DNA of 34,870 nucleotides from Bacteroidales bacterium (GCA_035389045.1 DAOORA010000007.1:62001-96870); one strand, 5' to 3'; numbered from the stretch's first letter, positions 1-20,525 are shown. Made by a program: numbers and translations. The notes: generated by a model from the letters alone, not told the origin.

Positions 1-114
1 TGCATAACTTCCGCAGCAACCGCTTAAAAAGCAGGCAGGACCGCAGGCACCACCGAAACAACTTAACAGCACTGCTCCTAAGCTTGAAAGTACTGAAATA
101 ATTTTTGCTTTCAT
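1..114 (-). CDS. Partial (runs off window) Cys-rich membrane protein, possibly MerT/MerC-like metal-binding transporter N-terminus; absent from the ORF track
   Basis: ATG at 114-112 overlaps the arsC TGA (ATGA coupling). Reads MKAKIISVLSSLGAVLLSCFGGACGPACFLSGCCGSYA with no stop: a hydrophobic segment with 5 Cys including a CC pair. Confidence 0.75.
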   Translation of the reverse strand, partial: MKAKIISVLSSLGAVLLSCFGGACGPACFLSGCCGSYA

Positions 115-524
115 TTAATGTTATTATAAAATGACGTTAGTTTTTCTTTTATCTCATCCCGTATCCGCCGGTAAACAGGCATTACTTCTTCTTTAGTTCC
201 TTTGGCAGCGGCAGGATCATCAAATCCGATATGAAGGCGATGAGTTACTTTCCCTGTGAATATAGGGCAAACTGCTTTAGCGCCATCGCAAACAGTAATC
301 ACATAATCAAAAGTATCGTTTAGAAAAATATCCACTTGTTTGGGATATTGAGTACTTATATCAGTACCAATTTCTGCCATTGCTTTTACTGCATAAGGAT
401 TTACTTTCTGTTCAGCTTTGGTACCTGCCGAAAATACCTCCAGGTTTTGGTCAATTGACTTTAAAAACCCTTCAGCCATCTGGCTTCTGCAAGTGTTCCC
501 TGTGCAAATTATCAAAATTTTCAT
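111..524 (-). CDS. arsC: Arsenate reductase ArsC, LMW-PTP (thioredoxin-coupled) family
   Basis: P-loop CTGNTCRSQMAEG, resolving Cys pair TVCDGAKAVCP, DDP motif. Start moved to MKILII (524) to avoid overlap with the upstream gene. Confidence 0.92.
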   Translation of the reverse strand: MKILIICTGNTCRSQMAEGFLKSIDQNLEVFSAGTKAEQKVNPYAVKAMAEIGTDISTQYPKQVDIFLNDTFDYVITVCDGAKAVCPIFTGKVTHRLHIGFDDPAAAKGTKEEVMPVYRRIRDEIKEKLTSFYNNIK

Positions 525-531
525 AATGAAG

Positions 532-954
532 TTATTTTGTTCTCGGTTTGAGCTGGCATACACACGAACCATCCAGCTTTTCCTTTGGGTTTATTAATAA
601 TGGTAATCCGTCCCGTTCCCATTCAACTAAGCCGCCTGCCAGATTTGCAATGTTTTTAAAATTTTTTCCGGCAAGAAATATCATAGCTTCCTTGCTTCTA
701 AGCCCGGCAGAATCAGCAATAATTACGGGTTTGTCGCCTGGTAATTCACTGAACTTTTCTGTAATCAGGCTAATGGGTAAGAAAATTGTTTTAGGCACGT
801 CAAACTGTTTGTATCCTGTTAGTTCTTCTTCCCTCACATCAACAAGAATAGCATTATTTTGAGTTTCGTAATAGGCTTCTTTTGGAGTAAGGTTTAAAAA
901 ACCGGCAGATTGAAACCCTGAAGATGCAAAAAATAATTTATTATTGCTATTCAT
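532..954 (-). CDS. Rhodanese-like domain protein with the catalytic Cys replaced by Asp and a C-terminal CxC
   Basis: ILVDVRE, IIADSAGLRS (normally C-x-x-G-x-R-S), NLAGGLVEW...GLP, tail GSCVCQL. Confidence 0.85.
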   Translation of the reverse strand: MNSNNKLFFASSGFQSAGFLNLTPKEAYYETQNNAILVDVREEELTGYKQFDVPKTIFLPISLITEKFSELPGDKPVIIADSAGLRSKEAMIFLAGKNFKNIANLAGGLVEWERDGLPLLINPKEKLDGSCVCQLKPRTK

Positions 955-1015
955 TTAATACCCGAAATTAGGTTAAAAGCGAAATTATTAAATTTTGACA
1001 TACTCCAAGTTAGAT

Positions 1016-1414
1016 TTATTCAATAACATTACCTTTAATAGATAGAGTTACTGTTCCTGTTTCGGCATTCGATATTACAGTAATAGTTTTACTTATAATG
1101 CCGACTCTTTTCGTGTCATAAACCACTTTTATCACTCCGCTTTGACCAGGTATAATCGGGTCTTTGGGCCAGGTAGGGACAGTACACCCGCATGATGATT
1201 TTACATTGCTCAATATCAATGGTTCTTTACCTGTGTTTTTAAAAGTAAATTCACAAGTCCCGTCAGAACCCTGTTTTATAGTACCATAATCATGTACTAA
1301 TTTATCAAACGAAATAACAGGAGAATTTGTCTGAGGTTTATCTGCTTGTCCTTTAGCAACCATAATTGAAGCAAAAAAGAACAAACATAAAGTTAATAGT
1401 TTTGTAGTTTTCAT
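1016..1414 (-). CDS. DUF1573 family exported Ig-like protein
   Basis: Signal peptide; HDYGTI...FTFKNTGKEPL.L..VKSSCGCT...PI.PG signature. Confidence 0.88.
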   Translation of the reverse strand: MKTTKLLTLCLFFFASIMVAKGQADKPQTNSPVISFDKLVHDYGTIKQGSDGTCEFTFKNTGKEPLILSNVKSSCGCTVPTWPKDPIIPGQSGVIKVVYDTKRVGIISKTITVISNAETGTVTLSIKGNVIE

Positions 1415-1431
1415 GATAATTTTATTAAAAA

Positions 1432-2148
1432 TTAATTTACCAAATTTAATTGTGACATTTCGATTTTGGGATTATGGTGAAGTGTTTCAATTTTACCATC
1501 TATCAGGTGTATTTTCATTGTGCCGTATTCGGCTGCCTGAGGACTGTGCGTAACCATGACAATGGTCATTCCTTTTTCCCTGTTGATCTTTTTCAGTAAA
1601 TTCAGAATTTCAGATGAAAGGGAAGGATCAAGATTTCCGGTTGGTTCATCGGCTAAAATTAAGTCGGGTTCATTTATTAAAGCCCTTGCAATAGCTACCC
1701 TTTGTTGCTGACCGGCTGAAAGCTCTCTGGGATAATGTTTCTTCCTGTCTTCGAGACACACCAACTCCATTAATGCATTTGCTTTTTTTATTTTGTCCTT
1801 TTTTGAAAATTTTGAAATTGCCAAAGGAAGCATCACGTTTTCTAAAGCCGTAAGATATGGGATCAGGGCAAAACTTTGCATGACAAATCCCACATGGTTT
1901 TTTCTGAAGTCTGACAGGTGCCTGTCATTTGCATTATCAATGCGAAAATCATTGAAATAAATTTCTCCTGAAGTAGTTTTGATCAATCCCGCCAAAGAAA
2001 GCAGGAGCGTAGTTTTGCCCGAACCCGATGGCCCGGTAATAGTAACAAAGTCTCCTTTTTTTACTTCAAAACTGATATTATCCAGAGCATGAACACCTCT
2101 GCCTGCTTTTTGATATTGTTTATTTAGGTTGTTTACTTTTAATATCAT
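1432..2148 (-). CDS. ABC transporter ATP-binding protein, LolD/MacB-type
   Basis: Walker A GPSGSGKT, signature LSAGQQQRVAIARAL, Walker B LILADEPTGNLD, VTH switch. Confidence 0.95.
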   Translation of the reverse strand: MILKVNNLNKQYQKAGRGVHALDNISFEVKKGDFVTITGPSGSGKTTLLLSLAGLIKTTSGEIYFNDFRIDNANDRHLSDFRKNHVGFVMQSFALIPYLTALENVMLPLAISKFSKKDKIKKANALMELVCLEDRKKHYPRELSAGQQQRVAIARALINEPDLILADEPTGNLDPSLSSEILNLLKKINREKGMTIVMVTHSPQAAEYGTMKIHLIDGKIETLHHNPKIEMSQLNLVN

Positions 2149-2150
2149 AA

Positions 2151-3371
2151 TTAGCCCTCCTGCATATTTGAAAATGGTTCAATTCTTCCGGCAAGATATG
2201 AGGGTATCATAGCACCTAATAAAGAAACGCCGATGGATATTGCCAGTGAAACTCCGATCAGGCTTGCTATAGGTTTTACAGGCAATCCGGCCAGTTCAGG
2301 GCCCAGCCACATCCCGGCTAAAGTACCGAGAATATAACCAACGATTCCGCCGATAATTCCTAACACTAATGCTTTCGACAGCATCATCCGGTAAATCACT
2401 GTTTTGTTAAATCCTACCATGCGTAACATCCCGATTTCCTTACGGCGTTCGTTGATGTTGGCCCACATGAAATTGCCAATGGATATACCGCCGACAAAGA
2501 TGATGATGATCAAAAATATCATGGAAACCTTGTTCATCATTTTGTTGGTTTCTATTTGTGTGGATACGATCTGGCCGATGGTTGTTATTCTTGTATCCGG
2601 CAGCACATTGCGCAGTTTACCAAGAAGCCCGTCGGATATTGCATTACAGCAACCCATTATTTCGATGGCGCTTACCTGTGCGGGAATTTTAAACAATTCC
2701 TGGGCTTTATGCAGATGGATGAAGATTCTGTCATCATCAACGGTACCTGTTTCATTTAACACCCTGGCTACTTTGAATTTTTCACCTAATATGTCAAGGT
2801 TGCCGCCCTCACTAACTTTTAGTTTAGAAGCCGCGGCATAACCAACCAGACATTCATCGCCACCTAATGAATCAATAACTTTTCGCTGCAATTTTTCATC
2901 AGCGTAACCGCTGCTTTGATTTGCAGTATTAGTGGGTGCGCAGCTTGCTTTTAAATCATTTCCCAATAAGCCGGATTGCTGCCACATGGGTTTTGAGGTG
3001 ATCTCGTTTTTCGGTAGAATACCCGTGAGTACAACGGTTTCATTTCCAATTTTTGTTCTTCGTGTTAATTTTGGAGATAAATTATCCACACCCTGGAGAT
3101 TGGAAGCAACAATTCTGTCAACATACTCTTCGGGAATGGTTGGTGCATCGATGTCAGCAGCATAATAATTGTCAACATTGGAAGCCTGTGGTAACACAAG
3201 AATATTGGCGCCAAGGTTATCCAGGTTCACTGCGACTGCTTTCTCCGAAACAACAGAAATTGATCTGATACCTACAATAACTGTAATCCCAAGTACTATT
3301 GCAAGCAGCCCTGAAACCAACTGCGACTTGTGTTGTTTGAACTCAAGCCAGACAAGTTTTCTAATATTCAT
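2151..3371 (-). CDS. ABC transporter permease, MacB/FtsX family
   Basis: N-terminal TM, large periplasmic domain (LGANILV), ERRKEIGMLRMVG motif, three C-terminal TMs; periplasmic Cys including MGCCN. Confidence 0.92.
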   Translation of the reverse strand: MNIRKLVWLEFKQHKSQLVSGLLAIVLGITVIVGIRSISVVSEKAVAVNLDNLGANILVLPQASNVDNYYAADIDAPTIPEEYVDRIVASNLQGVDNLSPKLTRRTKIGNETVVLTGILPKNEITSKPMWQQSGLLGNDLKASCAPTNTANQSSGYADEKLQRKVIDSLGGDECLVGYAAASKLKVSEGGNLDILGEKFKVARVLNETGTVDDDRIFIHLHKAQELFKIPAQVSAIEIMGCCNAISDGLLGKLRNVLPDTRITTIGQIVSTQIETNKMMNKVSMIFLIIIIFVGGISIGNFMWANINERRKEIGMLRMVGFNKTVIYRMMLSKALVLGIIGGIVGYILGTLAGMWLGPELAGLPVKPIASLIGVSLAISIGVSLLGAMIPSYLAGRIEPFSNMQEG

Positions 3372-3383
3372 AACAATATTTTT

Positions 3384-4202
3384 TTATTTTTTCGGGCCAC
3401 ATCCGCTGGTGCTGCCTCCCGGACAACAACCGCCTGTTTTAATAACTTTATTTGCCGAGGCCATCAGCGCTGTTTCTAATACAATACCTTCATATTTATC
3501 GGTTACCTGTCCCGATGCATTTGCAACAACAGTAATAGTCTTATCATTAATGGCGGTAATTCCTATCTGTTTCAAAAAAGCAGCTTCTTTGGTATCATTA
3601 AAATCAAAATCCACAACACTTGGTTTATTGGGCATCTTGGCACTTGTTGATTTACAATTTGCCAGCACCGTAGTTTTATCTGTCAATCCTTTTTTTGATA
3701 CAACAATGAACACAGGCCTTTTTTCAGATACTGCCAATAAAACTTCTTCTTTCTTTGGGCTTGGAATTGCTTGTACAAGCATGTCTGAAGTCGCCTGTAG
3801 TGCCGGATATCCCGCTACTGCAATACCCTTTGGAGAAAGCACAAGGATAAAAGGGAGTTGCACAAACCCAATTCCAAATTTTGTAACTAAATCGCTGTTG
3901 GCAGCATCATCTTTATTCATTTGCATCACTTCGGATTTTGTATATTTTGCTTTAGCGCCGTTGGCAATCACAAGGGCCTTATCAACACCGCTTGCCCCTG
4001 TTCCGGATATGACCATAAAAACCGCCTTACCTTCCTTTTTGGCTTTTTCTAATTGTTCTTTTATGGAAAGCACAGGAACAACTGTTTTGTGATTATTTTC
4101 TTTAGCCCATGTCTTTGAATGAACATTTAGTGTAAATACAGCAACAAGAAATATTGTAATATAAACACTTATTTGACCTGCATTGATTTTAAATTTTTTC
4201 AT
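3384..4202 (-). CDS. Exported protein with two CxxC-less thioredoxin-like domains and a C-terminal GGCCPGGSTSGCG tail
   Basis: N-terminal signal/TM; internal repeat (AKKEGKAVFMVIS / AVSEKRPVFIVVS) resembling Trx-fold starts; paralog of 4271..5092. Confidence 0.7.
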   Translation of the reverse strand: MKKFKINAGQISVYITIFLVAVFTLNVHSKTWAKENNHKTVVPVLSIKEQLEKAKKEGKAVFMVISGTGASGVDKALVIANGAKAKYTKSEVMQMNKDDAANSDLVTKFGIGFVQLPFILVLSPKGIAVAGYPALQATSDMLVQAIPSPKKEEVLLAVSEKRPVFIVVSKKGLTDKTTVLANCKSTSAKMPNKPSVVDFDFNDTKEAAFLKQIGITAINDKTITVVANASGQVTDKYEGIVLETALMASANKVIKTGGCCPGGSTSGCGPKK

Positions 4203-4270
4203 GGTTTTAGTTTTTTTGTTTTTTAGTGTGAATTTATTTTAATGAATTCTGAATATTTATACAATCGGAA

Positions 4271-5092
4271 TCAACCGCAACCTTTGCTGCTTCCACCCGG
4301 GCAGCAACCGCCACTTTGTTGCACTTTGTTTGCCGCAGCATTAAGTTGGTTCGTTGTGGGCATACCCGGGAACGTACCGGTTATCTGTCCTGCCGCATTT
4401 GCCACAGCCGTTATTGTTGTGCCATTAATAGAAGTTATCCCTATTTGCCCTAAAAAAGCTTTCTCATTCTGGTCATCAAAATCAATCTCAACTATGGCGG
4501 GTTTCATATTGTTTTTATTACTTGCATTTTTGCATACTGCGAGAATATTTTCTTTATCTGTATAATTCTTTTTTGAGACAACTATAAATACAGGTCTCTT
4601 TTCACTAAGAGCCATATAAACTTCATCTTGTTTGGGTGAAGGAATGGATTTTATTATCTGTTCCGCAGTCATTTGGGTTGGTGTTCCACCAGCAACAGCG
4701 ATGCCCTTTGAAGAAATCACTAAAATAAAAGGTACAGGAATAGTTGCAATACCAAATCTGTTTACAAGTTCGTTGTTTGCTGAATTGTCCTTGTCCAATG
4801 AATAAACCAGTGATTTGCTTAAATTCCTGTTAGCGTCAGTTACATTTTTAATGGCCTCGTTAATACCTGTAGCACCTGTACCTGTTATAACAAGAAAGAT
4901 AGGTTTTCCATCATTTTTTGCTTTTTCCAAAACATCATTTGAAAGACTTGCAGGTAGCTCAAAATTCAGTTTATCATCTGTGCCATTGCCTTCATTCCCA
5001 TCTTCGCTGTTTTCACTATTCAATTTTGGATTTCCACAGGATACAAGGGCAAATAATAACAAGTAAAGAGGGATATGTTTGATATTTTTCAT
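4271..5092 (-). CDS. Lipoprotein with two CxxC-less thioredoxin-like domains and a C-terminal GGCCPGGSSKGCG tail
   Basis: Lipobox LVSC; shares KGIAVAG, IPSPK, SEKRPVFIVVSKK, EKAFL.QIGIT and VANA.GQ.T blocks with 3384..4202. Confidence 0.72.
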   Translation of the reverse strand: MKNIKHIPLYLLLFALVSCGNPKLNSENSEDGNEGNGTDDKLNFELPASLSNDVLEKAKNDGKPIFLVITGTGATGINEAIKNVTDANRNLSKSLVYSLDKDNSANNELVNRFGIATIPVPFILVISSKGIAVAGGTPTQMTAEQIIKSIPSPKQDEVYMALSEKRPVFIVVSKKNYTDKENILAVCKNASNKNNMKPAIVEIDFDDQNEKAFLGQIGITSINGTTITAVANAAGQITGTFPGMPTTNQLNAAANKVQQSGGCCPGGSSKGCG

Positions 5093-5122
5093 TTTGATTA
5101 TATTTTATTAATTTGTATAATT

Positions 5123-5458
5123 TCAATCGCATTGACACATAAATGAACTTATAGTGCTGTCAAAAAAACTATTGAAGGTTTGTTTCATTTCTGCAAGTTT
5201 TTTCATATCCAGACAGTAATGGATTTTTAAACCGTCAATAGTACCCTGTATGATTCCCATTTCTTTGAGGTCTTTCAGGTGTTGGGATACTGTTGGCCGG
5301 CTGATTGGCAAAAAATCAGAAATATTACCCGTCCTGATTTCATTTTTCTCCGCCAACAATTGAATGATAGCAATCCTTGCCGGATGCGAAAGGATTTTTC
5401 CGAACAAGGCAATGTTTTGCTGATCCTGGCTGAATTCGTCAAATTTATTGTTATTCAT
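5123..5458 (-). CDS. arsR: ArsR/SmtB family repressor with C-terminal CQC
   Basis: LSHPARIAII, wHTH ISRPTVSQHLKDLK.MGII.G, HYCL. Confidence 0.9.
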   Translation of the reverse strand: MNNNKFDEFSQDQQNIALFGKILSHPARIAIIQLLAEKNEIRTGNISDFLPISRPTVSQHLKDLKEMGIIQGTIDGLKIHYCLDMKKLAEMKQTFNSFFDSTISSFMCQCD

Positions 5459-5470
5459 TATTTATATGTT

Positions 5471-5509
5471 TAATGTTGCAAACATACGACATTAATTTTT
5501 AATGACAAA
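5471..5509 (-). promoter_or_regulatory. Bacteroidota sigma70 promoter with overlapping putative ArsR operator
   Basis: Minus-strand TTTG (5509-5506), 19-nt spacer, TATGTTTG (5486-5479). The -7 box is bracketed by the inverted repeat TAATGTTG / CGACATTA (5471-5494). Confidence 0.8.
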
Positions 5510-5539
5510 AATTTTTTTATCTAAAAAATATATAAATTG

Positions 5540-6496
5540 CTAACTATTTGATTTGCATAAAGAAAAACTTTTTCTCAGTCCGACTTGTACTGAAAATGTA
5601 TTTGTAAGCTGGCAACCGTTCACATACTTGTAAAGTGGGATATCAGCCATAGCAAAAAGTCCCCATTTATATTTAAAATCGTAGATTAGTTGCGGGTTAA
5701 TATACAGTACATAACTGCCGGTGGATTCTATCTTTAAATTGTTTTCCCTTTTGTCCCTACCTCTAAATTCAAATTTTGCATTGGCTATAAAATCAAATTT
5801 TTTGGTTATTGCACATGTGCCGGCAAATGCAAATTGAAAATAATTGCCGTACCTGTATATTAAATAACCTTTTTTAATGGTTTGGCTTATTTCAAAAAGA
5901 GCAAAAGTGTTCCACCCGAATCTTCTGTCAGGACGTTTGCGCATATAGAAAGCACTTGCATTATACTTTAAAGAACCCGATGATGGTTGTAATGAGATGG
6001 GAATGGTAACCCCGTTGATTTGTTCGTTAAATGCTCCCACGGGTATTTTGATTCCGGCAGATATTACTAATTGGGATATTGGTTTGACTGTTCTGAATGG
6101 AATGTATTTGATATTGAATGCCAGGTCTCCCAAGCCATGTGCCCTTATCAGTTCGCTTTCATTATTGATGGTCAGCTTCTGGGTTTTATCTATAAAATAC
6201 CCCAGTTCTGCATTTGCAGATAGTTTGGACAATATTCCGTAGGTTAGTGAAAGTGAGCCGTAATCAAAATAACTTTTGTCTACATATTGCAGGTCTGTTT
6301 TAATGTCATGGTAAAAATAATTTTTGGATAGGCTGTATTTATAGGATGCCGAGATTCTTAATTCCTTTTTGTCCGCACCTATATTTGAGCCATCACCACC
6401 GATAGGATTTCCGGCTGTGCAGCATTGCCCGTAAGCGATATTGTTTACGGATAATGCTAAAATGTAAAAAAGGACAATAATTCTCCTCAAGATCAT
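5540..6496 (-). CDS. Putative outer-membrane beta-barrel ('transporter'/MetA-pathway-like) with N-terminal CC
   Basis: Signal peptide ending AYG, mature QCCTAGNP; GLGDL..., GIKIPVG and LQPSSGS motifs; alternating beta-strand pattern ending FSVQVGLRKSF. Confidence 0.7.
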   Translation of the reverse strand: MILRRIIVLFYILALSVNNIAYGQCCTAGNPIGGDGSNIGADKKELRISASYKYSLSKNYFYHDIKTDLQYVDKSYFDYGSLSLTYGILSKLSANAELGYFIDKTQKLTINNESELIRAHGLGDLAFNIKYIPFRTVKPISQLVISAGIKIPVGAFNEQINGVTIPISLQPSSGSLKYNASAFYMRKRPDRRFGWNTFALFEISQTIKKGYLIYRYGNYFQFAFAGTCAITKKFDFIANAKFEFRGRDKRENNLKIESTGSYVLYINPQLIYDFKYKWGLFAMADIPLYKYVNGCQLTNTFSVQVGLRKSFSLCKSNS

Positions 6497-6906
6497 GGAT
6501 TTACTCTTATCATGATCGTATCGGATACAGTACCGTATTCATTGTTAACTTTACATTCAACAGTATTAAGTCCAACACATGATTCACATGCCCAGTACAT
6601 AACAGTTACAGAATCTCTACCGGTCATACTTCCATGGTTTGCACTCCATTGAAATGACAGATTCTGTCCTCTTGCATAAGCTGTAATATAAATTGCTTCC
6701 CATGTAGCAATGTTCTTTTTTGTAGAAACCAAACTATCTAATGCCAAATTATCAGATGTGTCGGTTAAGGGCGGCTCCCTATCTTTTTTGCATGATTCAA
6801 TAGGTATTAATAAAGAAAGGTATATTACAAAAAGCACAAAATTTTTTGCTGACCGTTGCCATTTATTTTGCATATTATATAAGTTTTCAGTGTTATTTAT
6901 TTTCAT
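6493..6906 (-). CDS. Lipoprotein with Ig/PKD-like domain and CxxC
   Basis: Lipobox IESC followed by KKDRE; LSFQWSANHG and WACESCVG; stop overlaps the next ATG. True start may be 6873. Confidence 0.7.
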   Translation of the reverse strand: MKINNTENLYNMQNKWQRSAKNFVLFVIYLSLLIPIESCKKDREPPLTDTSDNLALDSLVSTKKNIATWEAIYITAYARGQNLSFQWSANHGSMTGRDSVTVMYWACESCVGLNTVECKVNNEYGTVSDTIMIRVNP

Positions 6907-6975: not shown

Positions 6976-7740
6976 CTATTTAATTTCAGACACGCCAAAT
7001 TTAAGAAATTCATTTTCAAGTTCATTAAATGAAAAATATCCTATGTGCCTAAAACATTCCTTTCCGGTTTTATCAAGTAGTATTTGTACAGGAATTAGCT
7101 GAATGCCGAAATGTTTGGCTGTTTTTTTGTTTTCTTTCATCCGGACATCATAGAAAACGACATTAACACTTCCTTTATATTTTTCTTTTATTTCCTTCAT
7201 AACTTTTTCCATTTTATTACACTCTATGCAGCCTTTAGATCCAAATTCGAGAAAAGTAATTTGATAGGTTGACATTTTCCTTGTGTAATTGTACAACAGG
7301 TTTAAACTGTCTGCAATGCTTAATGGCGCTATGGAAGATTCGGATAAAAGATCCTTGTCTTTGTGCCCGGTTTTATTTTTAGTTAAAAATACAATTGCAA
7401 GTAAAACAGAAATAAAAATGATCAAAAATAAAATTGTGAACAGATGGCGTTTATTCAGGTTCTTTTTTAAAGGGATCGTCAGCTTTTCGCTATCTGCCAG
7501 AAATTCATTTAATAACTTAATAATTTCAGTTTCAGCCGGAACAATTCCTCTTGAAACAACTTTGCCATTTATAACTATTGCAGGAACAGAACAAATTCCA
7601 TAAGAGATAAGCCGACCGGTATCCGTAATTTTTTCGACACTGGCATCCAAGGCATTGTCCGACACAATTTTTTGTATACGATCAAGAAGTGCATTGCATT
7701 TAGAGCAATCCACACCTAATATGATGATGTTTAAATGCAT
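6976..7740 (-). CDS. Fusion: MTH895/ArsE-like redox-active disulfide domain + TM helix + thioredoxin domain
   Basis: IIILGVDCSKC...VPAIVINGKVVSRG; TM HLFTILFLIIFISVLLAIVFL; LEFGSKGCIEC...IPVQILLDKTGKE.FRH.G. Confidence 0.85.
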   Translation of the reverse strand: MHLNIIILGVDCSKCNALLDRIQKIVSDNALDASVEKITDTGRLISYGICSVPAIVINGKVVSRGIVPAETEIIKLLNEFLADSEKLTIPLKKNLNKRHLFTILFLIIFISVLLAIVFLTKNKTGHKDKDLLSESSIAPLSIADSLNLLYNYTRKMSTYQITFLEFGSKGCIECNKMEKVMKEIKEKYKGSVNVVFYDVRMKENKKTAKHFGIQLIPVQILLDKTGKECFRHIGYFSFNELENEFLKFGVSEIK

Positions 7741-7746
7741 ATCATT

Positions 7747-8118
7747 TTAAACAAAGGTTTTTGCCATTTCATATACATCGTTTATCACATCATCATTTAC
7801 GGTTGTTTCTCCTTTTTTATACCTCAGATCTGTTACCCTCATATATTGGTAATTAGTAAACCCGTTCTTGTCCATGATTCGTTTACCGCAATCTATCGGA
7901 CAACCGTCAATAACAAGGATGTTTTTAGTCTTGAAATTCTCAATTGATTTTTCAATACCAGCGCCTATAACAGCAAGGCAATTCATTTTTCGTACCTTAT
8001 TGTCACGAAGTTTTCGGGCAACCAAATCGGTTATCTGTCCGACATCTGAAGAACCGGAACAGGCTAAAACCATATGTTCGCCACTTCCGCATAGGCAACC
8101 GTCTATTATTTCTTCCAT
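7747..8118 (-). CDS. DGC domain (putative zinc-binding) protein
   Basis: ACSGSSDVGQ, MNCLA and IDGCPIDCG motifs. Confidence 0.88.
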   Translation of the reverse strand: MEEIIDGCLCGSGEHMVLACSGSSDVGQITDLVARKLRDNKVRKMNCLAVIGAGIEKSIENFKTKNILVIDGCPIDCGKRIMDKNGFTNYQYMRVTDLRYKKGETTVNDDVINDVYEMAKTFV

Positions 8119-8159
8119 TTTATATAATTAAAAATGAATAATTAAAAAGAAAATGTCTG

Positions 8160-8390
8160 CTATAGGGTTGATTTTAAGAGTTTCTCAACTTGATCATAAA
8201 TATCATTTATTGGCCTTTGTTTTATCATTTTGCCAAGTTCAATGGCTTCTGCTGCTTGTTCTTTCGTGCAACCAATTTCAATGGCTTTTTTATAATGATA
8301 ATCGAGACAGGGGCGGCAGCCACCCGCTATGGATGCTGCAATACCTGCTAATTCAATAGTTTCTGCATCAAGATGTTTGAATGGTTCCAT
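8160..8390 (-). CDS. Carboxymuconolactone decarboxylase/AhpD-like protein
   Basis: ELAGIAASIAGGCRPCLDYH..KA...G.T.E. Confidence 0.85.
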   Translation of the reverse strand: MEPFKHLDAETIELAGIAASIAGGCRPCLDYHYKKAIEIGCTKEQAAEAIELGKMIKQRPINDIYDQVEKLLKSTL

Positions 8391-8394
8391 GTGT

Positions 8395-9159
8395 TTAATT
8401 TTTAAAAGGGTCGTTTTTACTTATTTCTTCTGCTTCTTTGCGTTTGAGCATAGCCAAAGCATTTTTGCCTCGGGAATTTGGTATGGCCTTTTGATTTAAA
8501 AATTTTAAACTTTGCACAATAGCATCAAAATCTTTAAAAGGAAAACCCAGTACCGTTTCATTTGGGCAAATATCAGTTGCATCACGGCAGCCATAGCATC
8601 CCATGCTCATATTGAATTTTTGTTGTAAGATGGAACTGTGGTTGCGTCCACACAGGTTGCCTGCAAAATTGCTGTGCTGCTTTCAACGCGTTGCCCTCCC
8701 TTAATATTGAGGTTGGCCAGGGCAAACCACATGAGTTTTTCGGTTTCATCTTCCACTATGATTATCGGGTTCTATATTTGCTGTTTCAAGCGGAAACAGA
8801 TATAACGCCTTGAGTTTCCCGTGAGGCAAAGTGCTCATTCCTTCAAACATGGTTTTGCCTGTGCCTTCTTCTTTTACAATACCAAAACCCACTAAGCCTT
8901 TTCCTGTTTTCAAGCCTTCGGGAAGGGGCTTAAAGCCGAATGCGGCTGCGGCGGCAGGGCAGGAGATACCCTCAGCATCAAGTAATACATGAGCCCCATG
9001 ACGCGCTTTCATAAGCGCCTGGCAATAGCGATGGCTTGTGAGTTTTTCAATTTTGGCAGGTATTTCTTCTTCTGGAAAAATAAATTTCACCCCAACTAAA
9101 GAAGATGTTAATCCAAGTATTTGTTTTACTTCTTTTGATGATTTCTGAATGTATTTCAT
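8395..9159 (-). pseudogene. DUF169 family gene disrupted by two compensating frameshifts (~8762 and ~8630)
   Basis: N part (HRYCQ, ISCPAAAAAFG) and C part (SMGCYGCR) share a frame. The intervening segment reads IIVEDETEKLMW...LQATCVDATTVP only in a shifted frame. Confidence 0.8.
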
Positions 9160-9178
9160 TTGATTGTGTTAAATAACT

Positions 9179-9478
9179 TTAAATTGATTCAATCATCTTA
9201 TAGATTTCACGCATCATATCATCATGTTCCGTTTCGCCTTCTTTCGACCACCTTGGCTCATAAGCGCAACTACATTTCCATGAAGAAGCACATGTCTTTG
9301 GTTTTTCTCCCTTATGGAGCATATCAGCACAAGCTAAAAGTGATCGAACATCATAGTTTGTATATTTCTCATTATGTCCGTTGTATTCAGGAGAGATTAC
9401 AGCGTATTTTTCAATAAACCTGTAAATACGTTCGGCAAGTTCTTTCATTTTATTTTCCGTTACAGAACCATCAAACAT
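9179..9478 (-). CDS. Hypothetical protein with Cys cluster
   Basis: Co-oriented and fills the gap within the operon; TCASSWKCSC motif; start may be 9448. Confidence 0.6.
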   Translation of the reverse strand: MFDGSVTENKMKELAERIYRFIEKYAVISPEYNGHNEKYTNYDVRSLLACADMLHKGEKPKTCASSWKCSCAYEPRWSKEGETEHDDMMREIYKMIESI

Positions 9479-9512
9479 TTGTTGAACTTTAAAAAAATGG
9501 TTTTAAAGAAAA

Positions 9513-10859
9513 CTAAAAGATACTTCCATAAATAATTCCTGTGATGGTGGCCATTACCACAACAAGACTAACATATACAACAGTTTTCTGAGTTCCCATT
9601 ACTTTTTTTATAACCAGCATATTTGGTAACGATAAAGATGGGCCTGCAAGCAATAAAGCCAGGGCAGGACCCTTGCCCATGCCGGAAGCAATCAGGCCTT
9701 GCAGAATGGGAACTTCTGTCAATGTGGCAAAATACATAAATGCACCAACAATAGATGCGAAAAAATTGGAAAACACGGAATTGCCACCCACCAGCCATTG
9801 TATCCATTCATTGGGTATCACTCCGGCGATGGTTTTCCCATCGTGAGTTGAACCGAGAAGGAAACCTGCTGTAACCACGCCAATGGCAAGTAATGGAAGT
9901 ATCTGTTTGGCAAAGCCCCACGTTGATATTGTCCATTCTTTATTTTCCTGTTCTTTTTTATCAAGAAGCGTGATGATACTCAATGCGGCTATGCCCACGA
10001 TCATGGGTACCAGCGGACTGAGTTTTGTATCAGGAATAAACAAGGTGGAAAGTATGGCGGCAGCCGCTGTTGCTATAACAGCAAAAAGTACCCATTGCCA
10101 TTTGATTTTTAATATTTTTATCAGCGAATACACCAGAAACAATCCGAAAAACCCGGTGATATACCATTTGTAATACCAGATGTAATACCAGGCGCTGGAG
10201 GTGTCACCATCAGAAGGGCTGCCCCAGTTGGCAAAAACAAGGATCAGTATCAGCGTAAAAAAATGAAAGGATGTCTGCCACATCGGCCGTTTCTCAGGCG
10301 GGAGTTGTATATTCATCTGGTCTTCGCGTTTTTGTTTTTCTTCTTTGCGGTATATCAGCGACATGATCACTCCTATAATTACACTGAATGAAACGGCTCC
10401 GACTGTCCGTGCAACGCCCATTTCAAACCCTAAAATACGTGCTGTTAATATTATGGCAAGTATATTGATTGCCGGCCCGGAATATAGAAAAGCAATAGCA
10501 GGGCCTAAACCCGCGCCGCGTTTGTGAATACTCGAAAATAAGGGCAATATGGTGCAGGAACACACAGCAAGTATAGTTCCCGAAACAGCAGCCACTGTAT
10601 ATGCAAGCCATTTTTTTGCGTTGGCGCCAAAATATTTCAGCACCGAACCCTGGCTGACAAATACCGAAATAACCCCCGCAATGAAAAATGCCGGTAACAG
10701 GCAAAGAATTACGTGTTCACGCGCATACCATTTAGCTAAATCAAAGGTTGCGTCAATGGCTGTTGTAAAACGGGCGCTATCTATTGGTAAAAAAAACACT
10801 GCCCCGAATACCAATGCGATCCAGATTAAAATTTTAATTTCTTTTTTTGTTTCCATCAT
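9513..10859 (-). CDS. arsP: DUF318/ArsP-family permease
   Basis: LAVCSCTILPLF, FLYSGPAINI, YFATLTEVPI and LLAGPSLSLP motifs; multiple TMs. Confidence 0.85.
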   Translation of the reverse strand: MMETKKEIKILIWIALVFGAVFFLPIDSARFTTAIDATFDLAKWYAREHVILCLLPAFFIAGVISVFVSQGSVLKYFGANAKKWLAYTVAAVSGTILAVCSCTILPLFSSIHKRGAGLGPAIAFLYSGPAINILAIILTARILGFEMGVARTVGAVSFSVIIGVIMSLIYRKEEKQKREDQMNIQLPPEKRPMWQTSFHFFTLILILVFANWGSPSDGDTSSAWYYIWYYKWYITGFFGLFLVYSLIKILKIKWQWVLFAVIATAAAAILSTLFIPDTKLSPLVPMIVGIAALSIITLLDKKEQENKEWTISTWGFAKQILPLLAIGVVTAGFLLGSTHDGKTIAGVIPNEWIQWLVGGNSVFSNFFASIVGAFMYFATLTEVPILQGLIASGMGKGPALALLLAGPSLSLPNMLVIKKVMGTQKTVVYVSLVVVMATITGIIYGSIF

Positions 10860-10872
10860 AATACGTTTTTGT

Positions 10873-10892
10873 ATTTCGCAAAAAAGCGAAAT
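10873..10892. promoter_or_regulatory. Putative ArsR operator upstream of the ArsP-family permease
   Basis: Perfect ATTTCG-N8-CGAAAT with arms identical to the site at 13614-13633. Confidence 0.7.
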
Positions 10893-10908
10893 GAATTTAT
10901 AAAAAAAT

Positions 10909-11622
10909 TTATGAAATCAGTTTCTGAAAGTAGAATATATAAACATAGTAAAATCCTACAATAATAAAGACAACAGCAATAACCCGCCTAAACCATTTTT
11001 CAAATACTTTCACTTTGTTATAAAATCCTCCCAGGCTTGATATGCTGAATGCCAGCAGATATGCCACTATGATTACCGGTAATCCTGTTGCAATAGCATA
11101 CACCAGCGGCAGAAATAAACCGGATGGTGAACTGATAGTAATAGGGATGAGCATGCCGAAATAAAGAACCCCGCTATAAGGGCAAAAAGCAAGAGCAAAG
11201 ACAATACCTAATAATAACGCGCTCCACCAGTTGTTTTTCTTGTTTTTCCCCATTCGTTCTGTTAACTTTCCGCTGCCGGGTAGTTTTATTTTGATAAAAT
11301 CGAGCATTAGTATTCCGATTATTATTAAAAGTGGTCCTAAAAATTTCTCACCGTGCGACTGCAAAAATTTGGCAATTTGGAAGGTGCTGGCACCAAAAAA
11401 TAAAATTATACCAATTGTTGTATAACTGATAGCTCTACCCAGGGTGTACCATAAACCGTTAAAAAAAATCTTTTTACGATTTTCGAGGTCTTTGCTTATA
11501 AAGCCAATAGCTGTGATGTTGGTGGCAAGCGGGCAGGGGCTGATAGCCGTCATGATCCCTAGTATAAATGCTGATAGAAATGGAACATTGGTCCCATCCA
11601 GCCAGTTTTGTAAAAAGTCCAT
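10909..11622 (-). CDS. arsG: ArsG-family / CcdA-DsbD-like membrane protein
   Basis: TAISPCPLATNI and ALAFCPYSGVLYFG motifs; about six TMs; context with ArsE/ArsF-like genes. Confidence 0.8.
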   Translation of the reverse strand: MDFLQNWLDGTNVPFLSAFILGIMTAISPCPLATNITAIGFISKDLENRKKIFFNGLWYTLGRAISYTTIGIILFFGASTFQIAKFLQSHGEKFLGPLLIIIGILMLDFIKIKLPGSGKLTERMGKNKKNNWWSALLLGIVFALAFCPYSGVLYFGMLIPITISSPSGLFLPLVYAIATGLPVIIVAYLLAFSISSLGGFYNKVKVFEKWFRRVIAVVFIIVGFYYVYIFYFQKLIS

Positions 11623-11631
11623 AAAAAAAAT

Positions 11632-12036
11632 CTACTTTAAAAGCCCGTCAATCTTGGCTATCAGCTCTTTCTCCAGCGTTTCTTTATTCTGGTCAAGCAT
11701 ATAATTTTTTACTATGTCTGTGACATTCACACTGGTTTCTTTTTTCTTCTTTTTCTTAACAATGATGACCGTCTGTGAAGTGGCTTGGTATTTATCAATA
11801 AGGGCTTTATTACTTTCTTCGGCAATTTTTACCTCTTTGAAAATTACATTTCCTGTGGGATAGTTTTTTTCAACGATACCTTTGATGTCCGCTTCGAGGA
11901 CATTGCAGGCCTTTGCTTTGCAACAGGCAAGGTTGGCTTTGAAATACAATACCTCTGCTTTTCCTTTGGTACTCTGAGCGAAAAGTGCAGACGCGGAAAT
12001 GATTAAAACTGCAATTAATAATGTTGCTTTTTTCAT
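11632..12036 (-). CDS. Exported ArsF-like thioredoxin-fold protein (divergent CCxxxC)
   Basis: Signal peptide; EVLYFKANLACCKAKAC; aligns by eye with the two adjacent paralogs. Confidence 0.7.
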   Translation of the reverse strand: MKKATLLIAVLIISASALFAQSTKGKAEVLYFKANLACCKAKACNVLEADIKGIVEKNYPTGNVIFKEVKIAEESNKALIDKYQATSQTVIIVKKKKKKETSVNVTDIVKNYMLDQNKETLEKELIAKIDGLLK

Positions 12037-12042
12037 GTTGTG

Positions 12043-12474
12043 TTATTTTAATGATTCATCAATTTTTGATTTCAGTTCAGAAATAAATATGTCGGGCTCG
12101 TGTACTTTTTTGAAAGCCCAGCCTGTAAGGTCTTCGCTTTTGTCTTCTTTGCCGCTGACAAATGAAGTTATGGCCAGTGTAGCTCCGTAGGCTTCATATT
12201 TTTTTACCAGGTCTCTGTTTTCGGGCAGCTCGCAATTCAGAACATACAGGTCAACAATTCCAAGTTCAAGCTGGCTCGCAAAATTGTTGTCAATAGTCTG
12301 CCTGACATATTTTTCAATAGAAAAACAGGTGTTGCAGCGGTTAGTGATATGAAAGTAATAAACTTTCAGTTTCAGGTTCTGGGGATTGTTTGAAATAATG
12401 GTGTCGTTACTTTTTTGTGAGAATACTCCAACAGACAACAAGAGTAAAAATGTAATTATGACCGGTTTTTTCAT
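12043..12474 (-). CDS. arsF: Exported ArsF-family thioredoxin-fold protein
   Basis: Signal peptide; KVYYFHITNRCNTC.SIE; EDLTGWAF. Confidence 0.75.
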   Translation of the reverse strand: MKKPVIITFLLLLSVGVFSQKSNDTIISNNPQNLKLKVYYFHITNRCNTCFSIEKYVRQTIDNNFASQLELGIVDLYVLNCELPENRDLVKKYEAYGATLAITSFVSGKEDKSEDLTGWAFKKVHEPDIFISELKSKIDESLK

Positions 12475-12479
12475 GGTTA

Positions 12480-13013
12480 TTATTTTAAATATTCAGTGAT
12501 TTTGTTTTTTAGGATTTCAATAAATTTTTCCTCCTTGTTTTTAGCAAATTTGAAGCCATCTCCTGTCATGTCGGTGGTGGTTTCTTTCCCTTTGAAAACT
12601 CTCGTCACATAAAGCCCTGAACCAAAGGCCTGATATTTCTCAGCTATATCAGCATTTTTATCTTCATCTACATTTAAAATATATTGTTTGACCCTGCCTT
12701 GTTTAAGTTCTGCAGAAAAGTAAGTATTCAGTGTTTTTGTCGTTGCTTTTTCTATGGCTATGCACGACACACAACGGTTAGTGATATGAAAGTTGTACAC
12801 CAAAACTTTAGGTAAATCTTTTTTTTGTTCAACAACATCTTTTTTATCTGTCGTATCCGTTACCGGTAGTGAGTCAATGCTTTTTTGTTCAACTTTTGCA
12901 AGGGTGTCGGTTGCCACCTGTTCGTCTGATTTTTTGTTTGCTTGATTGCAGCCCAAAAATAACAAGACTATAATAACAAGTGTCAATGATTTTAATGCTG
13001 ATAATTTTTTCAT
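12480..13013 (-). CDS. arsF: ArsF-family lipoprotein
   Basis: Lipobox FLGC; VYNFHITNRCVSCIAIE; DMTGDGF. Confidence 0.75.
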   Translation of the reverse strand: MKKLSALKSLTLVIIVLLFLGCNQANKKSDEQVATDTLAKVEQKSIDSLPVTDTTDKKDVVEQKKDLPKVLVYNFHITNRCVSCIAIEKATTKTLNTYFSAELKQGRVKQYILNVDEDKNADIAEKYQAFGSGLYVTRVFKGKETTTDMTGDGFKFAKNKEEKFIEILKNKITEYLK

Positions 13014-13032
13014 AGTTCAATTTTTTTGCTTG

Positions 13033-13347
13033 TTATTTGTTTTTGCCTTTGTTCAAAAATTCTTCCAACAGTGTTTTTGCAATTTCCCAGTTTTTAGTGT
13101 TTATACAATATTTTATTATGGGAGGTTCTATCTCACCTTGTATCAAACCTGCATATTTCAGCTCTTTCAGATGTTGTGAAAGTGTGGAGCGGGCTATGGG
13201 AATATCTCCTATCATTTCGCCGCTGGTGCAACATGAATTTAATCCCAGAAGCTTTTCAATTATATAAACCCGTGCCGGATGGCTTAATGCTTTTGCAATT
13301 AAGGCTATTTGCTTGTGCTCTTCTGTGAATTTTGGTTTAGGTGACAT
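13033..13347 (-). CDS. arsR: ArsR/SmtB family repressor with CC before the HTH
   Basis: KALSHPARVYII, NSCCTSGE, IARSTLSQHLKELK.AGLIQG, KYCI. Confidence 0.9.
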   Translation of the reverse strand: MSPKPKFTEEHKQIALIAKALSHPARVYIIEKLLGLNSCCTSGEMIGDIPIARSTLSQHLKELKYAGLIQGEIEPPIIKYCINTKNWEIAKTLLEEFLNKGKNK

Positions 13348-14811: not shown

Positions 14812-17800
14812 TTAGATGATGACAATTTTTTTCTGATGCACAGCATTCCCGCTTACAACATGTATGATATAACATCCGGGTTCTTCAACCGTATAGCGGG
14901 TGGTGCCAATACCTTTTTGTTCAGCGCTGATGACCTTTTGTCCCAGCATGTTGTAAACGGATATTTCAGCATTTTGTATATCGGTGTTGCTGTAATTGAC
15001 AAAAATATCTTTGCCCGACGACCATGCATCCATAAAGGAATTGCTGGTTTGATCAATACCTGTGATCACAGAAGGCGAGAACCGGATGAAGAACCTGTAT
15101 TGCGGGGCATTGGCGTTCATGGTGAAGGTGTAGACAGGGTTCATTGTCAGATCCTGGTTTGTTGATGTCTGGTTATCTTCAAGATAGATATGCAGGGATG
15201 GGTCGAAGTTGAGTATCTCGCTGGCATTGATGGTAAAGTTCCCGTTGGTTTTGGTAATATAGCCGAGCGGAATGATCACGTCTGTATTGGATAGAGGTGG
15301 CAGGGCCTGTATTGATAAAGAAACCGGAGTGCTGTCCCTGGTGAAGATGTTGGGGTAAGCCGGATTATTATTCATCATTTTATAAGCGTCGAAATTACCG
15401 TCGAACATTGAACTTGCCTGTGGATCGAAATAAATAACCGTTTCGTCGGCCGCAGAAATATTGTTGGCAGGGTAGCCTCTGAGCCTCAGTATGGGATTAT
15501 TTTGTGTGGCTTTATGGAATACCGGGTTCAGGTCAGAAATCCTTACGGCATTGGTAGCGCCCAGTGATCCCGCACCTGTTGCCTTAACTAAGAATCCCTG
15601 CATGGCTGCAATAATACCTGTGGTTCCTGAAGGATTACCAATGCCATTGACAAAAGAACTGTAAGTTCCTGTATACTGATCTGCGGCATCAAAATAATAA
15701 ATAGCATTGTTCATATTTAATTTGGTCCAAGCTCCTGATTGCCAGTCCACCGGCGAAGGGTAGGGGTTGCCAACAAGGTTCCAGCCGTCGGCATAAGTGT
15801 TGCCTGTAATGGTTTTTGTCAAGTCTATGCTAAGATTTCCGTTGTTGACAACGCCTGTAACATCTGTTGTCAGCGGAGTAGCTGAAGCCCCGAAGTTGAT
15901 GCAGTATCCGCGCATGGTCTGAAGTGTCGATCCTGCGCCCGTCCAGCCTATGGACATTGTTGGTCCCATGGTTTCGTCGTAAGCAAAGAAATTGGGGAAA
16001 GGAGTGACGGTCTGCGTGGTGTCGTTACCAATGTATGGATTCCCCGTGATGATCGTGCCGATTTCATCGGCAAACTCGTTTATGGAAGCCCCGTTGAACG
16101 GCGAAGAATAATAATGATAACCCAACCTGCTTGGCATATAGCGTTGCATGGTTACATTGCCGCTGACATTGCCGGATCCCGTACCAGCTATCAGTGCTGT
16201 CTGCAAGGCATTGGACACCAGGGTAAGGTTCCCTGCAGAAGCCAATGTGCCGAGTGTGGGTGTGAGAACCCCTGTCACCTGTGTGGGGTTGTTTAAGGTA
16301 ACACCATTAGCGTTATTGATGGTGAGGTTTCCGAAGGTGGTGGCTCCGTTAATGGACTGTGCGGTGCTGCCGGAAAAGATAACAGTTCCGCTGCCCACGC
16401 TGCTTTGCCCGTTGTTGGTCCAGTGGCCATAAACCGTCAGGTTTTTGGCGCTGTTAACCGTAACAGAAGCCCCGGCATCGATGACAATGCTTCGGCATAC
16501 CGATGTGCCAACCGAATTAACCACCGGCAGGTTGCTGACCGAGGGAATTGTTATGTCTGAAGTGTTTGTTGGCACTATTCCGCAAGACCAGTTACCTGGA
16601 GTATCCCAGTCGGTATCTATTGCGCCTGTCCACGTGAGATCTGCACATTCGGAAAATTCATCAGCGCCGATATCGGGCCCGTCAACAGGTGCAGTTCCGG
16701 TTTGCCGGGTGTCGCCATCAAAGTCGCTTGAAATTCCGGCAATAACGATACCGGCATTGCTTGATGCTGAACCTGTGGTGCAATGCAGGTCGGTTCCTGA
16801 AGTAAACATCGGGTTGCCTGAAACCGAGTTTGCATCTTTTCCGCTTGTTGTCTGCCAGGCTGCCAGGTTTGCACAGTCGATACCACCCCAATTGCCCAGG
16901 TTTGAACCGGTTGAAAACAAATTATTATAGTTGCATGTAGATAAACCACCGGTAGATGATTCAATATTTATGGCATATAAATCAGCGCTGTAAAAGATAT
17001 TATTATGAACATTTACAGAAGAAGATGACGACATGTAAAAAGAAGCATAACCGGCAGCATAAGCACCATTGTTATAAACACTGTTAAAATAAAAATTTTT
17101 GTAAGATGAATTTGCAACGTAAATACCATAAGCATATGTGCTTCCCACAATTATCATATTATTAGATATGTCGCCGACATAGGAACTACTTCCTGAACAA
17201 TTGCTAAGGGCTATCCCGTAATTGCCCGCCGAGCTGTTATATTTAAAATAATTTTTGGAAATGCTAAGGCCATTATTGGCATAGTACCCAAAGATCCCAT
17301 AATTTGAAACAGCGTCATAGGTTGTGGAATTGGTAAGATGATTTCCGGTAATGATTGCTCCCTGTACGTAATGCAAACTAATTCCAATAAAATAGTTTTC
17401 AAACGTACTGTTCTGAATTGTAATGTTCGATTTCGGACTTCCGGAAGCTCCACGCCAATCCACTCCGGACCATCCGTTGTAGAAGTAACAATCGTCAAAC
17501 ACATTTCCGGTATTCCCGGTATTATTGTCGGTAGACGAAACAAGGGCATCATTCATCGTGGAACCTGTTCTTCCTGAAAACTTGACATTTCCGAACAGGT
17601 TATTAGAAGCATCGCCGGAAACTTTTACCACTATTGCATAAATGCCGGTACCGGTTCTTTCGATGGTCATATCTTTAAAAACAACATGGTCGGTTCCGTT
17701 TAGCTGCAGGGTATAATTATTTGTCGAGCTTGCACTGCTTGGGTAAGACAAGGTTACATCCGCCTGATTTCCGTTATTGGATTGAAAGGTTACGGTTACA

Positions 17801-20286: not shown

Positions 20287-20525
20287 CTTAGGACTGAGGA
20301 AAAGACGAAAACGCCTGTTTACATCCTTTTTCAGCGGTTCATAATTGCAAACAACGAGCTTGCAAAAACAGTTCGTTGTTAAAAACTACGAACACTGATG
20401 TTCTTACTTGCACATTATGGACAAATGATTTTTTATGATAGGATGACTGTCTGAAGCGCAAGGCCAGCGCTCAGTCATCTTATCACCTGCAATAAAGGAT
20501 GTAAATCATCCAAAACTGATACTGG

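Follow-up and report, generated by a model that had tools for sequence, protein, structure and literature searches.

To our knowledge, the arsenic resistance described in textbooks goes no further than the inner membrane (ArsB, Acr3, ArsP, ArsK and ArsJ), with nothing assigned to the periplasm of diderm bacteria. As(III) and Sb(III) are coordinated by three thiolates, and the CC..C site of the cytoplasmic protein ArsD (Cys12, Cys13 and Cys18) is the precedent for an As(III) tri-thiolate. In ABC (ATP-binding cassette) machines of type VII, the use of ATP in the cytoplasm moves a periplasmic domain; partners described for such machines include MacA-TolC, LolA, EnvC and TesA. Here we describe a locus from a Bacteroidales bacterium, lying within a 34,870-nucleotide stretch of DNA (GCA_035389045.1, DAOORA010000007.1:62001-96870; hereafter the window) that belongs to a genome of 4.46 Mb, 96.3% complete. 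Its core is a trio of genes encoding an exported protein with a Cys-bearing C-terminal tail (the tailed protein), a MacB/FtsX-type permease and an ABC ATPase. We consider it on balance probable that the locus is an ArsR-controlled type VII ABC envelope module, whose partner protein would bind trivalent arsenicals through thiolates and pass them on.

The locus shares features with several described systems and departs from each of them. As in MacAB-TolC, the permease combines FtsX and MacB_PCD domains, with four transmembrane helices, a large periplasmic domain and a separate LolD/MacB-like ATPase alongside; unlike MacAB-TolC, the ATPase is unfused, a CC pair sits in the periplasmic domain and the partner is a tandem-thioredoxin protein. 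Membership of that system was rejected, with the MacB equivalog model scoring 34.7 bits against a cut-off of 966 and with no MacA/HlyD-type adaptor or TolC duct in the neighbors scanned. The arrangement of a permease and ATPase with a dedicated periplasmic partner recalls LolCDE-LolA, and LolE and LolC are close fold matches, but the partner here is not LolA-like and the context is an ars island rather than a housekeeping one. The corresponding models likewise fall short of their cut-offs (TIGR02212, 32.9 bits against 362.45; LolD, 229.7 against 307.75). ArsD-ArsA offers a thioredoxin-fold protein with a CC..C thiol site and an ATPase-driven machine in ars operons; indeed, the motif MCCPSGLCGP of a true ArsD in a more distant locus (L094) resembles the tail CCPGGSxxGCG. 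The tailed protein, however, is exported and two-domain, carries its conserved Cys at a C-terminal tail, and is paired with an ATPase of ABC type acting via a type VII permease. Neither tailed protein in the window matches PF06953, for which the true ArsD proteins of L094 and L058 score 108 and 136.6 bits. The SAO locus of anaerobes places CC and CU motifs in exported (lipo)proteins beside an ABC transporter and an ArsP-like efflux protein (10.1101/2022.07.06.499078). Its ABC transporter, by contrast, is of the uptake type with substrate-binding proteins, and that text mentions neither FtsX, MacB, ArsR nor DUF1573. SAO models scored below cut-off here (SaoA 156.6 bits against 360, SaoE 118.7 against 325, SaoT 20.3 against 65), and the permease is of FtsX type. 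HrtBA, YbbAP-TesA and BceAB, finally, which extract or free compounds at the membrane's outer face, are fold matches, and machines of this kind have been described as acting on membrane-associated small molecules without a duct; they differ in lacking a thiol-tailed partner and an arsenic context.

Among open-access papers and preprints, supplements aside, we found no MacB/FtsX-type ABC system or Cys-tailed thioredoxin-like partner described in ars operons, in keeping with the view of an initial annotation of this DNA that no system of the same layout had been characterized. A 2015 survey of ars operons counted 5 ABC transporters among more than 700 transporters, their type unstated in the text accessible to us (PMC4435449). 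In Xanthomonas an arsenite-induced ABC/FtsX-like pair is listed among energy genes (PMC8477397), and in the available part of a further report FtsX-like domains are merely tabulated (PMC6016940). The trio therefore appears to be undescribed: what is new is a type VII ABC system with a new class of partner in a new, arsenic-related setting.

The module is established by its gene content, synteny, Cys conservation, folds, conserved operator and ars context. Related loci were gathered from two sides. One genome per species was scanned with a 14-sequence alignment of the tailed protein, giving 8 genome loci, and metagenomes were scanned with the permease, giving 338 confirmed stretches from which 80 loci were kept; these form the 88 related loci referred to below, and metagenome counts are over 79, the window's own contig (L011) being excluded. 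Every one of the 8 genome loci holds one or two tailed genes, then the permease, then the ATPase. A tailed gene lies directly upstream of the permease in 66/66 metagenome loci with at least 900 bp of room; a script returned 65, but in the missed locus (L059) the permease is split into two open reading frames (ORFs) with the tailed gene in place, so the count is 66. Directly downstream of the permease, the ATPase is again found in 66/66. The linkage thus holds both ways, and these three genes make up the invariant core. Two distant copies (L094 and L095) keep the trio as well, beside ArsD-ArsA-ArsC-Acr3, with a permease that retains the GCC motif and with diverged tails (CSGGSCCGSKK and CSGGGCCPK).

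The surroundings of the trio are those of arsenic resistance. Forty loci measure 8 kb or more; ArsC, ArsM or Acr3 is encoded in 35 of them (Acr3 in 31, ArsC in 28, ArsM in 14) and ArsR likewise in 35, with ArsG and DUF1573 in 12 each. ArsC and Acr3 each occur in seven of the 8 genome loci, where ArsR stands directly upstream in six and one gene further in a seventh. In the window itself, every gene from 13347 down to 1, and on past the window end, lies on the minus strand, and the gaps between genes in the block from 1 to 5509 measure 2-68 bp. Terminator-like sites (7, against 4.5 +/- 1.9 in shuffled sequence) were not above chance, and none was intergenic on the minus strand. Since ars genes flank both sides, the stretch from arsR to a Cys-rich membrane ORF is one operon-like block within an arsenic island of more than 20 kb. 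The genes listed for this block in the initial annotation are all present, on the minus strand, and two observations that it had named in advance as decisive, conservation of the Cys motifs in homologs and of the gene neighborhood, were both made: the tail and permease Cys are conserved, and the trio is syntenic elsewhere and embedded in ars islands. Its reading of the whole layout as one system was borne out for the trio, whereas the companions vary, with ArsR directly upstream of the first tailed gene in 34/60 loci, DUF1573 directly after the ATPase in 16/56 and a rhodanese in 10/40 large loci. Other genes directly after the ATPase are ArsR (11/56) and ArsC (7/56).

The two tailed proteins of the window, A and B, are 47% identical (E 2e-85), and the twin exported paralogs ending in GGCCPGGS..GCG that had been picked out in the initial annotation are as stated there. 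Their tails are of the form CC-x7-C, that of protein A being predicted to be disordered. Pfam and NCBIfam returned no family above cut-off for either protein, the sole match being Thioredoxin_6 at 23.6 bits (cut-off 27). A word-indexed search recovered 88 relatives, none of them functionally named: those named at source are called hypothetical protein, and the labels of metagenome-assembled genomes among them read Bacteroidales, Bacteroidota, Bacteroidia and Ignavibacteriae. A profile search of 1.84 billion representatives returned 633 at E <= 1e-3, of which 442 also pass E <= 1e-10 and 131 pass E <= 1e-30, and in the ESM Atlas several unnamed clusters of the same shape derive from Bacteroidota and Planctomycetota. 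In an alignment of 85 homologs, no sequence lacks C263 or C272, and conservation reaches at least 90% at C187, P265 and G267. The last 30 residues of 119 full-length representatives contain at least three Cys in 100, two in 13, one in 3 and none in 3; every listed copy that reaches its C-terminus has a CC-x5-10-C or C-x3-C-x4-C tail. Copies without the pair's second Cys have one three to four residues further on, as in GCGPGCGPAGC.

An AlphaFold model of protein A (predicted local distance difference test, pLDDT, 85.8; predicted template-modeling score 0.76) comprises two thioredoxin-fold domains (residues ~50-150 and 153-255) and the disordered tail. Top Foldseek matches are tandem-thioredoxin proteins (calsequestrin, Eps1p and protein disulfide isomerase) at E ~1e-6, with low template-modeling scores of 0.27-0.34. 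Neither thioredoxin domain contains CxxC in the sequence or the alignment, and both folds are predicted to be redox-inactive. At most N-termini there is either a lipobox or a hydrophobic stretch resembling a signal sequence. Under a rough regular expression, which misses some lipoboxes and is applied to ORFs whose starts are in part uncertain, a lipobox is present in 26 of the 74 tailed ORFs in related loci and absent from 48, six of the 74 having neither lipobox nor signal-like stretch; by the same expression 50 of 86 database homologs lack one. Many members of the family have ordinary signal peptides. The only conserved reactive feature of this obligate partner is its flexible three-thiol tail with a Pro-Gly turn.

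The domains, topology and fold of the permease, together with the adjacent intact ATPase, make it a member of the type VII ABC (MacB/FtsX) family, of the homodimer type. Its matches to PF02687 (FtsX) and PF12704 (MacB_PCD) exceed cut-offs of 25.5 and 27 bits, respectively (Table 1). In the structural model (pLDDT 73.2), transmembrane helices span residues 15-53, 267-308, 323-361 and 370-395, with a periplasmic domain of ~230 residues between the first and second. Foldseek placed MacB (5gko_A, E 3.6e-15) first and LolE (4.3e-15) close behind; LolC, Spr0695, HrtB, YtrF, YbbP and BceB are further matches. By sequence, the transmembrane part matched MacB among PDB entries (E 1.6e-15), and the periplasmic domain alone gave 0 matches at E <= 10. 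The best 120 database matches of the permease are 66-95% identical to it, most from unnamed sources and the named ones from Bacteroidetes/Bacteroidales, Paludibacteraceae, Ignavibacteriae, Deltaproteobacteria and Planctomycetota. With the window copy added to these, all 121 sequences have C144, C241 and C242, and 120/121 have C174. The periplasmic GCC motif noted from the window alone accordingly holds up as MGCC at residues 239-242, its Cys invariant in this set; in the model the CC pair caps a helix at the end of a strand, ~40 residues before the second transmembrane helix. The ATPase sequence contains intact Walker A, signature, Walker B and H-loop motifs, and the NCBIfam models nearest to it are LolD, DarD and FtsE, all below their cut-offs.

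The module also has a putative switch, and the dedicated promoter/operator proposed in the initial annotation stands. Within the 81-bp spacer 5' of arsR, TTTTGTCATT is followed by 20 nt and then by the 26-mer AATGTCGTATGTTTGCAACATTAAAC (5493-5468). When both strands of the 1.72 Mb that make up the 88 related loci were searched, the 26-mer recurred with at most two substitutions in 30, one of which is the window's own contig. In every case it is on the operon strand and shortly precedes an arsR or, in two loci (L016 and L020), a tailed gene. An inverted repeat, ATGTCG-N8-CGACAT, is imperfect in the window (ATGTCG-N8-CAACAT) and spans TATGTTTG, which we take to be a match to the Bacteroidetes -7 box consensus TAnnTTTG. 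ArsR itself scores above the cut-off of its profile, and C82, C108 and C110 (the last two forming a C-terminal CxC) are conserved in 8/8 orthologs. By profile and conserved putative inducer ligands, it is an ArsR/SmtB metalloregulator, otherwise generic.

From this gene context we infer that arsenic is the substrate. Because the tail offers three thiols, the context is arsenic, ArsR has three Cys and ArsD provides a precedent, the tail is taken to bind trivalent arsenicals in the periplasm. In the mechanism that we propose, As(III), possibly MAs(III) or Sb(III), would free ArsR from its operator via the three Cys. The tri-Cys tail would then capture the arsenical in the periplasm as a tri-thiolate, as the CC..C site of ArsD does in the cytoplasm, and the tailed partner, either soluble or lipid-anchored, would dock on the periplasmic domain of the permease. 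ATP-driven mechanotransmission could force a thiol-to-thiol hand-over or a release at the permease CC site, and the arsenical might be cleared outwards from the envelope through an outer-membrane barrel with a CC-headed N-terminus where one is present, or otherwise through general porins, which could confer resistance. The barrel is an obvious candidate exit, though it occurs in a minority of loci. ArsG, ArsF and thioredoxin genes nearby could keep periplasmic thiols reduced. Contact between partner and permease is weakly supported by a complex prediction of the kind envisaged in the initial annotation: the pair gave an ipSAE of 0.33 against 0.00 for the best control, on a mark that was reached by 116/157 solved complexes and 2/215 mismatches, with 18 of the 157 solved complexes and both passing mismatches lying at 0.60 or under. 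Runs agreed in at least 56% of contacts, with a partner pLDDT of at least 79.

Several points weigh against this reading. As(OH)3 is small and neutral, so the gain from an energized periplasmic step is not obvious. Pfam searches of 28 cluster proteins and the 12 most recurrent extra same-strand neighbors revealed no MacA-like adaptor or TolC-like duct; the outward route is therefore unproven, and the barrel that might provide it is confined to a minority of loci. The term exporter, used in the initial annotation, goes further than this evidence, and type VII ABC systems need not transport across a membrane at all. The limited strength of the complex prediction and the loss of C174 in the distant branch of the permease count on the same side. 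The metagenome loci include many that duplicate one another almost exactly (L043/L046, L085/L087 and L035/L036 are examples), so the counts overstate independence. As to expression, contigs from RNA libraries are at least 99% alike to the window (over 1-5600) in arsR, the genes for proteins A and B, the permease gene and arsC, and one of 348 nt spans the junction of arsR and tailed gene A. These come from runs X5, X6 and X8, labelled metatranscriptomic and possibly from one campaign, in which DNA may be present; the contigs indicate neither transcripts nor levels, parts left uncovered carry no meaning, and the whole amounts to a weak hint of transcription rather than proof.

It is improbable, in our estimation, that the tailed proteins are instead sacrificial or regulatory thiol buffers, with arsenic or redox stress prompting the ABC machine to reset or regulate them and no movement of metalloid. 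Their thioredoxin-like fold would suit such a role, as would the abundance of genes for periplasmic reductants in the island (ArsG/CcdA-like, three ArsF-like, a Trx3-Trx fusion and a MauE-Trx fusion), and some type VII ABC systems, FtsEX-EnvC among those described, act on partner proteins rather than solutes. Yet CxxC is absent from both thioredoxin domains, the conserved Cys belong to a disordered tail whose layout resembles a metal site, and the tight linkage is to ArsC and Acr3 rather than to general redox genes. A thiol-protection role is thus less well supported than carriage of arsenicals, as is the sorting role taken up further below.

Mercury is the main rival substrate. The trio could traffic Hg(II) or methylmercury, or else Cu(I) or Cd(II), and be found in ars islands because these also carry hgcAB; we hold this to be unlikely. 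CC motifs also bind Hg. In 18/88 loci a same-strand hgcA (NF040863; 426.9 bits, cut-off 275) is found 1-6 kb downstream of the trio, and the gene after arsC is weakly MerT-like, so mercury stays a candidate, and both facts tell against arsenic. CC and CU motifs have, moreover, been discussed for heavy metals in the SAO preprint (10.1101/2022.07.06.499078), within the part of it that is accessible. Against this, the window genome possesses the trio and gave 0 matches to hgcA, no hgcA was seen in 70/88 loci, as compared with ArsC, ArsM or Acr3 in 35/40 large loci, and no merA-, merB- or merP-like family was found among the recurrent neighbors tested. A three-thiol site also suits As(III) or Sb(III) better than two-coordinate Hg(II).

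The loci with hgcA are L003, L007, L008, L012-L014, L016, L023, L057, L065, L071, L073-L077, L085 and L087 (for example, L077:9404-10447). Most of them also contain short ferredoxin-like ORFs (NitroFeS matches, 30-38% identity), which are candidates for hgcB. Co-location of hgcAB with ars genes has been reported in some methylators, in a text whose accessible part mentions neither ABC nor FtsX (10.1101/2022.10.17.512643).

That the permease and ATPase act like Lol, pulling the tailed (lipo)proteins out of the inner membrane for delivery to the outer membrane or the cell surface, with sequestration of arsenic there, is an equally slender prospect: lipoboxes are present in protein A and many relatives, the best structural matches of the permease include LolE and LolC, and LolD is the best NCBIfam match of the ATPase, but most family members lack a lipobox by the rough expression above, the lolCE model scores far below its cut-off, and sorting gives no role to the conserved periplasmic CC pair of the permease.

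Returning to the transfer of arsenicals through the type VII ABC module, it is tempting to speculate on a more complete path, which we put forward tentatively and as considerably less secure than arsenical binding by the partner. This would be an ATP-powered thiol bucket brigade, running from the tri-Cys tail to the permease CC pair and on, where present, to a Cys-bearing lipoprotein and the QCC-headed barrel. Such a path might constitute the first dedicated periplasm-to-outside route for arsenic in diderms, and might make the trio a type VII ABC machine of a new functional class. In a bolder variant, the same machine might move Hg(II) or methylmercury in the loci that carry hgcAB.

The module is widespread and strongly conserved, with 442 tailed-protein clusters at E <= 1e-10 and 338 permease stretches. 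If arsenical binding holds true, genes now annotated as hypothetical and as ABC transporter permease would become new ars genes, type VII ABC systems would have gained a new kind of partner, and the tail would represent a natural tri-thiol arsenic-binding tag. That hgcAB is a frequent neighbor is relevant to two debated matters, the native function of the mercury-methylation genes and the link of hgcAB with arsenic; were the variant with Hg or methylmercury to hold, it would address how mercury methylators take up and release mercury. Among the genomes searched the module is rare, as only 2/400 other genomes of the phylum gave a match, both at ~50% identity (permease 49-50%). Plasmid carriage is not indicated for it: among 72,556 plasmid records, tblastn with the permease found nothing at 1e-40. 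Split ORFs were encountered for the ATPase in L005 (L005:12870-13569) and for the permease in L059 (L059:1961-3173), and reflect frameshifts or assembly errors.

Table 1 Features of the arsR-led block and of two adjacent genes, in window coordinates
Feature	Position	Strand	Remarks
Operator/promoter motif, 26 nt	5468..5493	-	Upstream of arsR; imperfect inverted repeat
arsR, ArsR/SmtB-family repressor	5123..5458	-	HTH_5 44.4 bits; NF033788 64.7 bits (cut-off 55)
Cys-tailed protein A, lipoprotein, 273 aa	4271..5092	-	Lipobox LVSC; ends SGGCCPGGSSKGCG
Cys-tailed protein B, paralog, 272 aa	3384..4202	-	Signal/anchor sequence; ends TGGCCPGGSTSGCGPKK
MacB/FtsX-type (type VII ABC) permease	2151..3371	-	FtsX 66.1 bits; MacB_PCD 33.1 bits
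ABC ATPase, LolD/MacB/FtsE type	1432..2148	-	ABC_tran 116.5 bits; catalytic motifs intact
DUF1573 protein, exported	1016..1414	-	123.1 bits; motif SCGCT
Rhodanese-homology protein	532..954	-	C-terminal tail SCVCQLKPRTK
LMWP-type arsC	111..524	-	LMWPc 76.7 bits; TIGR02691 131.6 bits (cut-off 174.3)
Cys-rich membrane ORF, 5' part	1..114	-	ATG overlaps arsC stop (ATGA); continues past window
Outer-membrane beta-barrel (Phenol_MetA_deg type), possible accessory	5540..6496	-	29.6 bits
Small lipoprotein, possible accessory	6493..6906	-	Pairs with barrel; three conserved Cys

DUF1573, the rhodanese, and the barrel with its lipoprotein are variable accessories rather than core components. The CGC motif that the initial annotation had remarked on in DUF1573 is present, as SCGCT, in 17/18 copies next to the module, although the protein proved to be an accessory (2 of the 8 genome loci) and not a core part; the motif is common in DUF1573 generally. 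The rhodanese likewise has the CVC tail ascribed to it, and a C-terminal CxC in 13/14 copies, but Asp replaces the catalytic Cys in 13/14 and no signal peptide was found. Judged by its residues, it is probably not a sulfurtransferase of the usual kind. A C-terminal CxC is common to this protein and the neighboring ArsR.

The barrel accompanies the module in 4 of the 40 large metagenome loci and, with the lipoprotein, in 3 of the 8 genome loci. Its mature N-terminus reads QCC(S/T/A/G)(A/S)GNP in 8/8 distinct complete N-termini (the window and seven loci), and it is always preceded by the small lipoprotein, which has CxxC or CC plus a third Cys; neither is functionally named. Conserved Cys thus occur in the tailed proteins, permease, DUF1573, barrel and lipoprotein, such that no predicted exported protein of the block is without a conserved Cys motif, which is the pattern noticed in the initial annotation.

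ArsC, a putative thioredoxin-coupled (pI258-type) arsenate reductase, displays a readable CX5R motif and two Cys with a spacing of 7, with the TIGR02691 score remaining below cut-off. Past the end of the window, in the same genome (L002), the Cys-rich membrane ORF encodes a protein of 177 aa (L002:11581-12114, minus strand) with many CC and CxxC motifs and a sub-threshold MerT/MerTP-like match (57.9 bits, cut-off 180). It is followed there by ArsM (359.1 bits, cut-off 263) and Acr3 (436.3 bits, cut-off 282.8), and then by a triple-DUF1573 protein and a MauE-thioredoxin fusion. On the other flank, window positions 6976-13347 (minus strand) encode ArsR, three ArsF-like proteins, ArsG (318 bits, cut-off 200) and an ArsP_1-type permease, in addition to a 99-aa protein of no known family, DUF169, DGC and a Thioredoxin_3+Thioredoxin fusion. 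Many related loci have this block too, which is similar to the arsEFG/arsP gene sets for organoarsenicals.

Beside the distant trios, an ArsR ends in CC(K), and L094:6302-7116 and L095:10499-11288 encode paired Com_YlbF-family proteins of ~135 aa (60-63 bits) ending in CCG or CCS; C-terminal CC motifs are thus found on cytoplasmic proteins too.

Elsewhere in the window (14812-32122, minus strand) lie three giant ORFs of 1824, 1347 and 2431 aa that are unrelated to the ars module. Their region has a G+C content of 0.41-0.51, as against 0.33-0.43 in the first 14 kb with the ars genes. Two of them have Por_Secre_tail sorting domains, a domain that marks type IX secretion and the phylum Bacteroidota, and one contains nine Ig_7 repeats.

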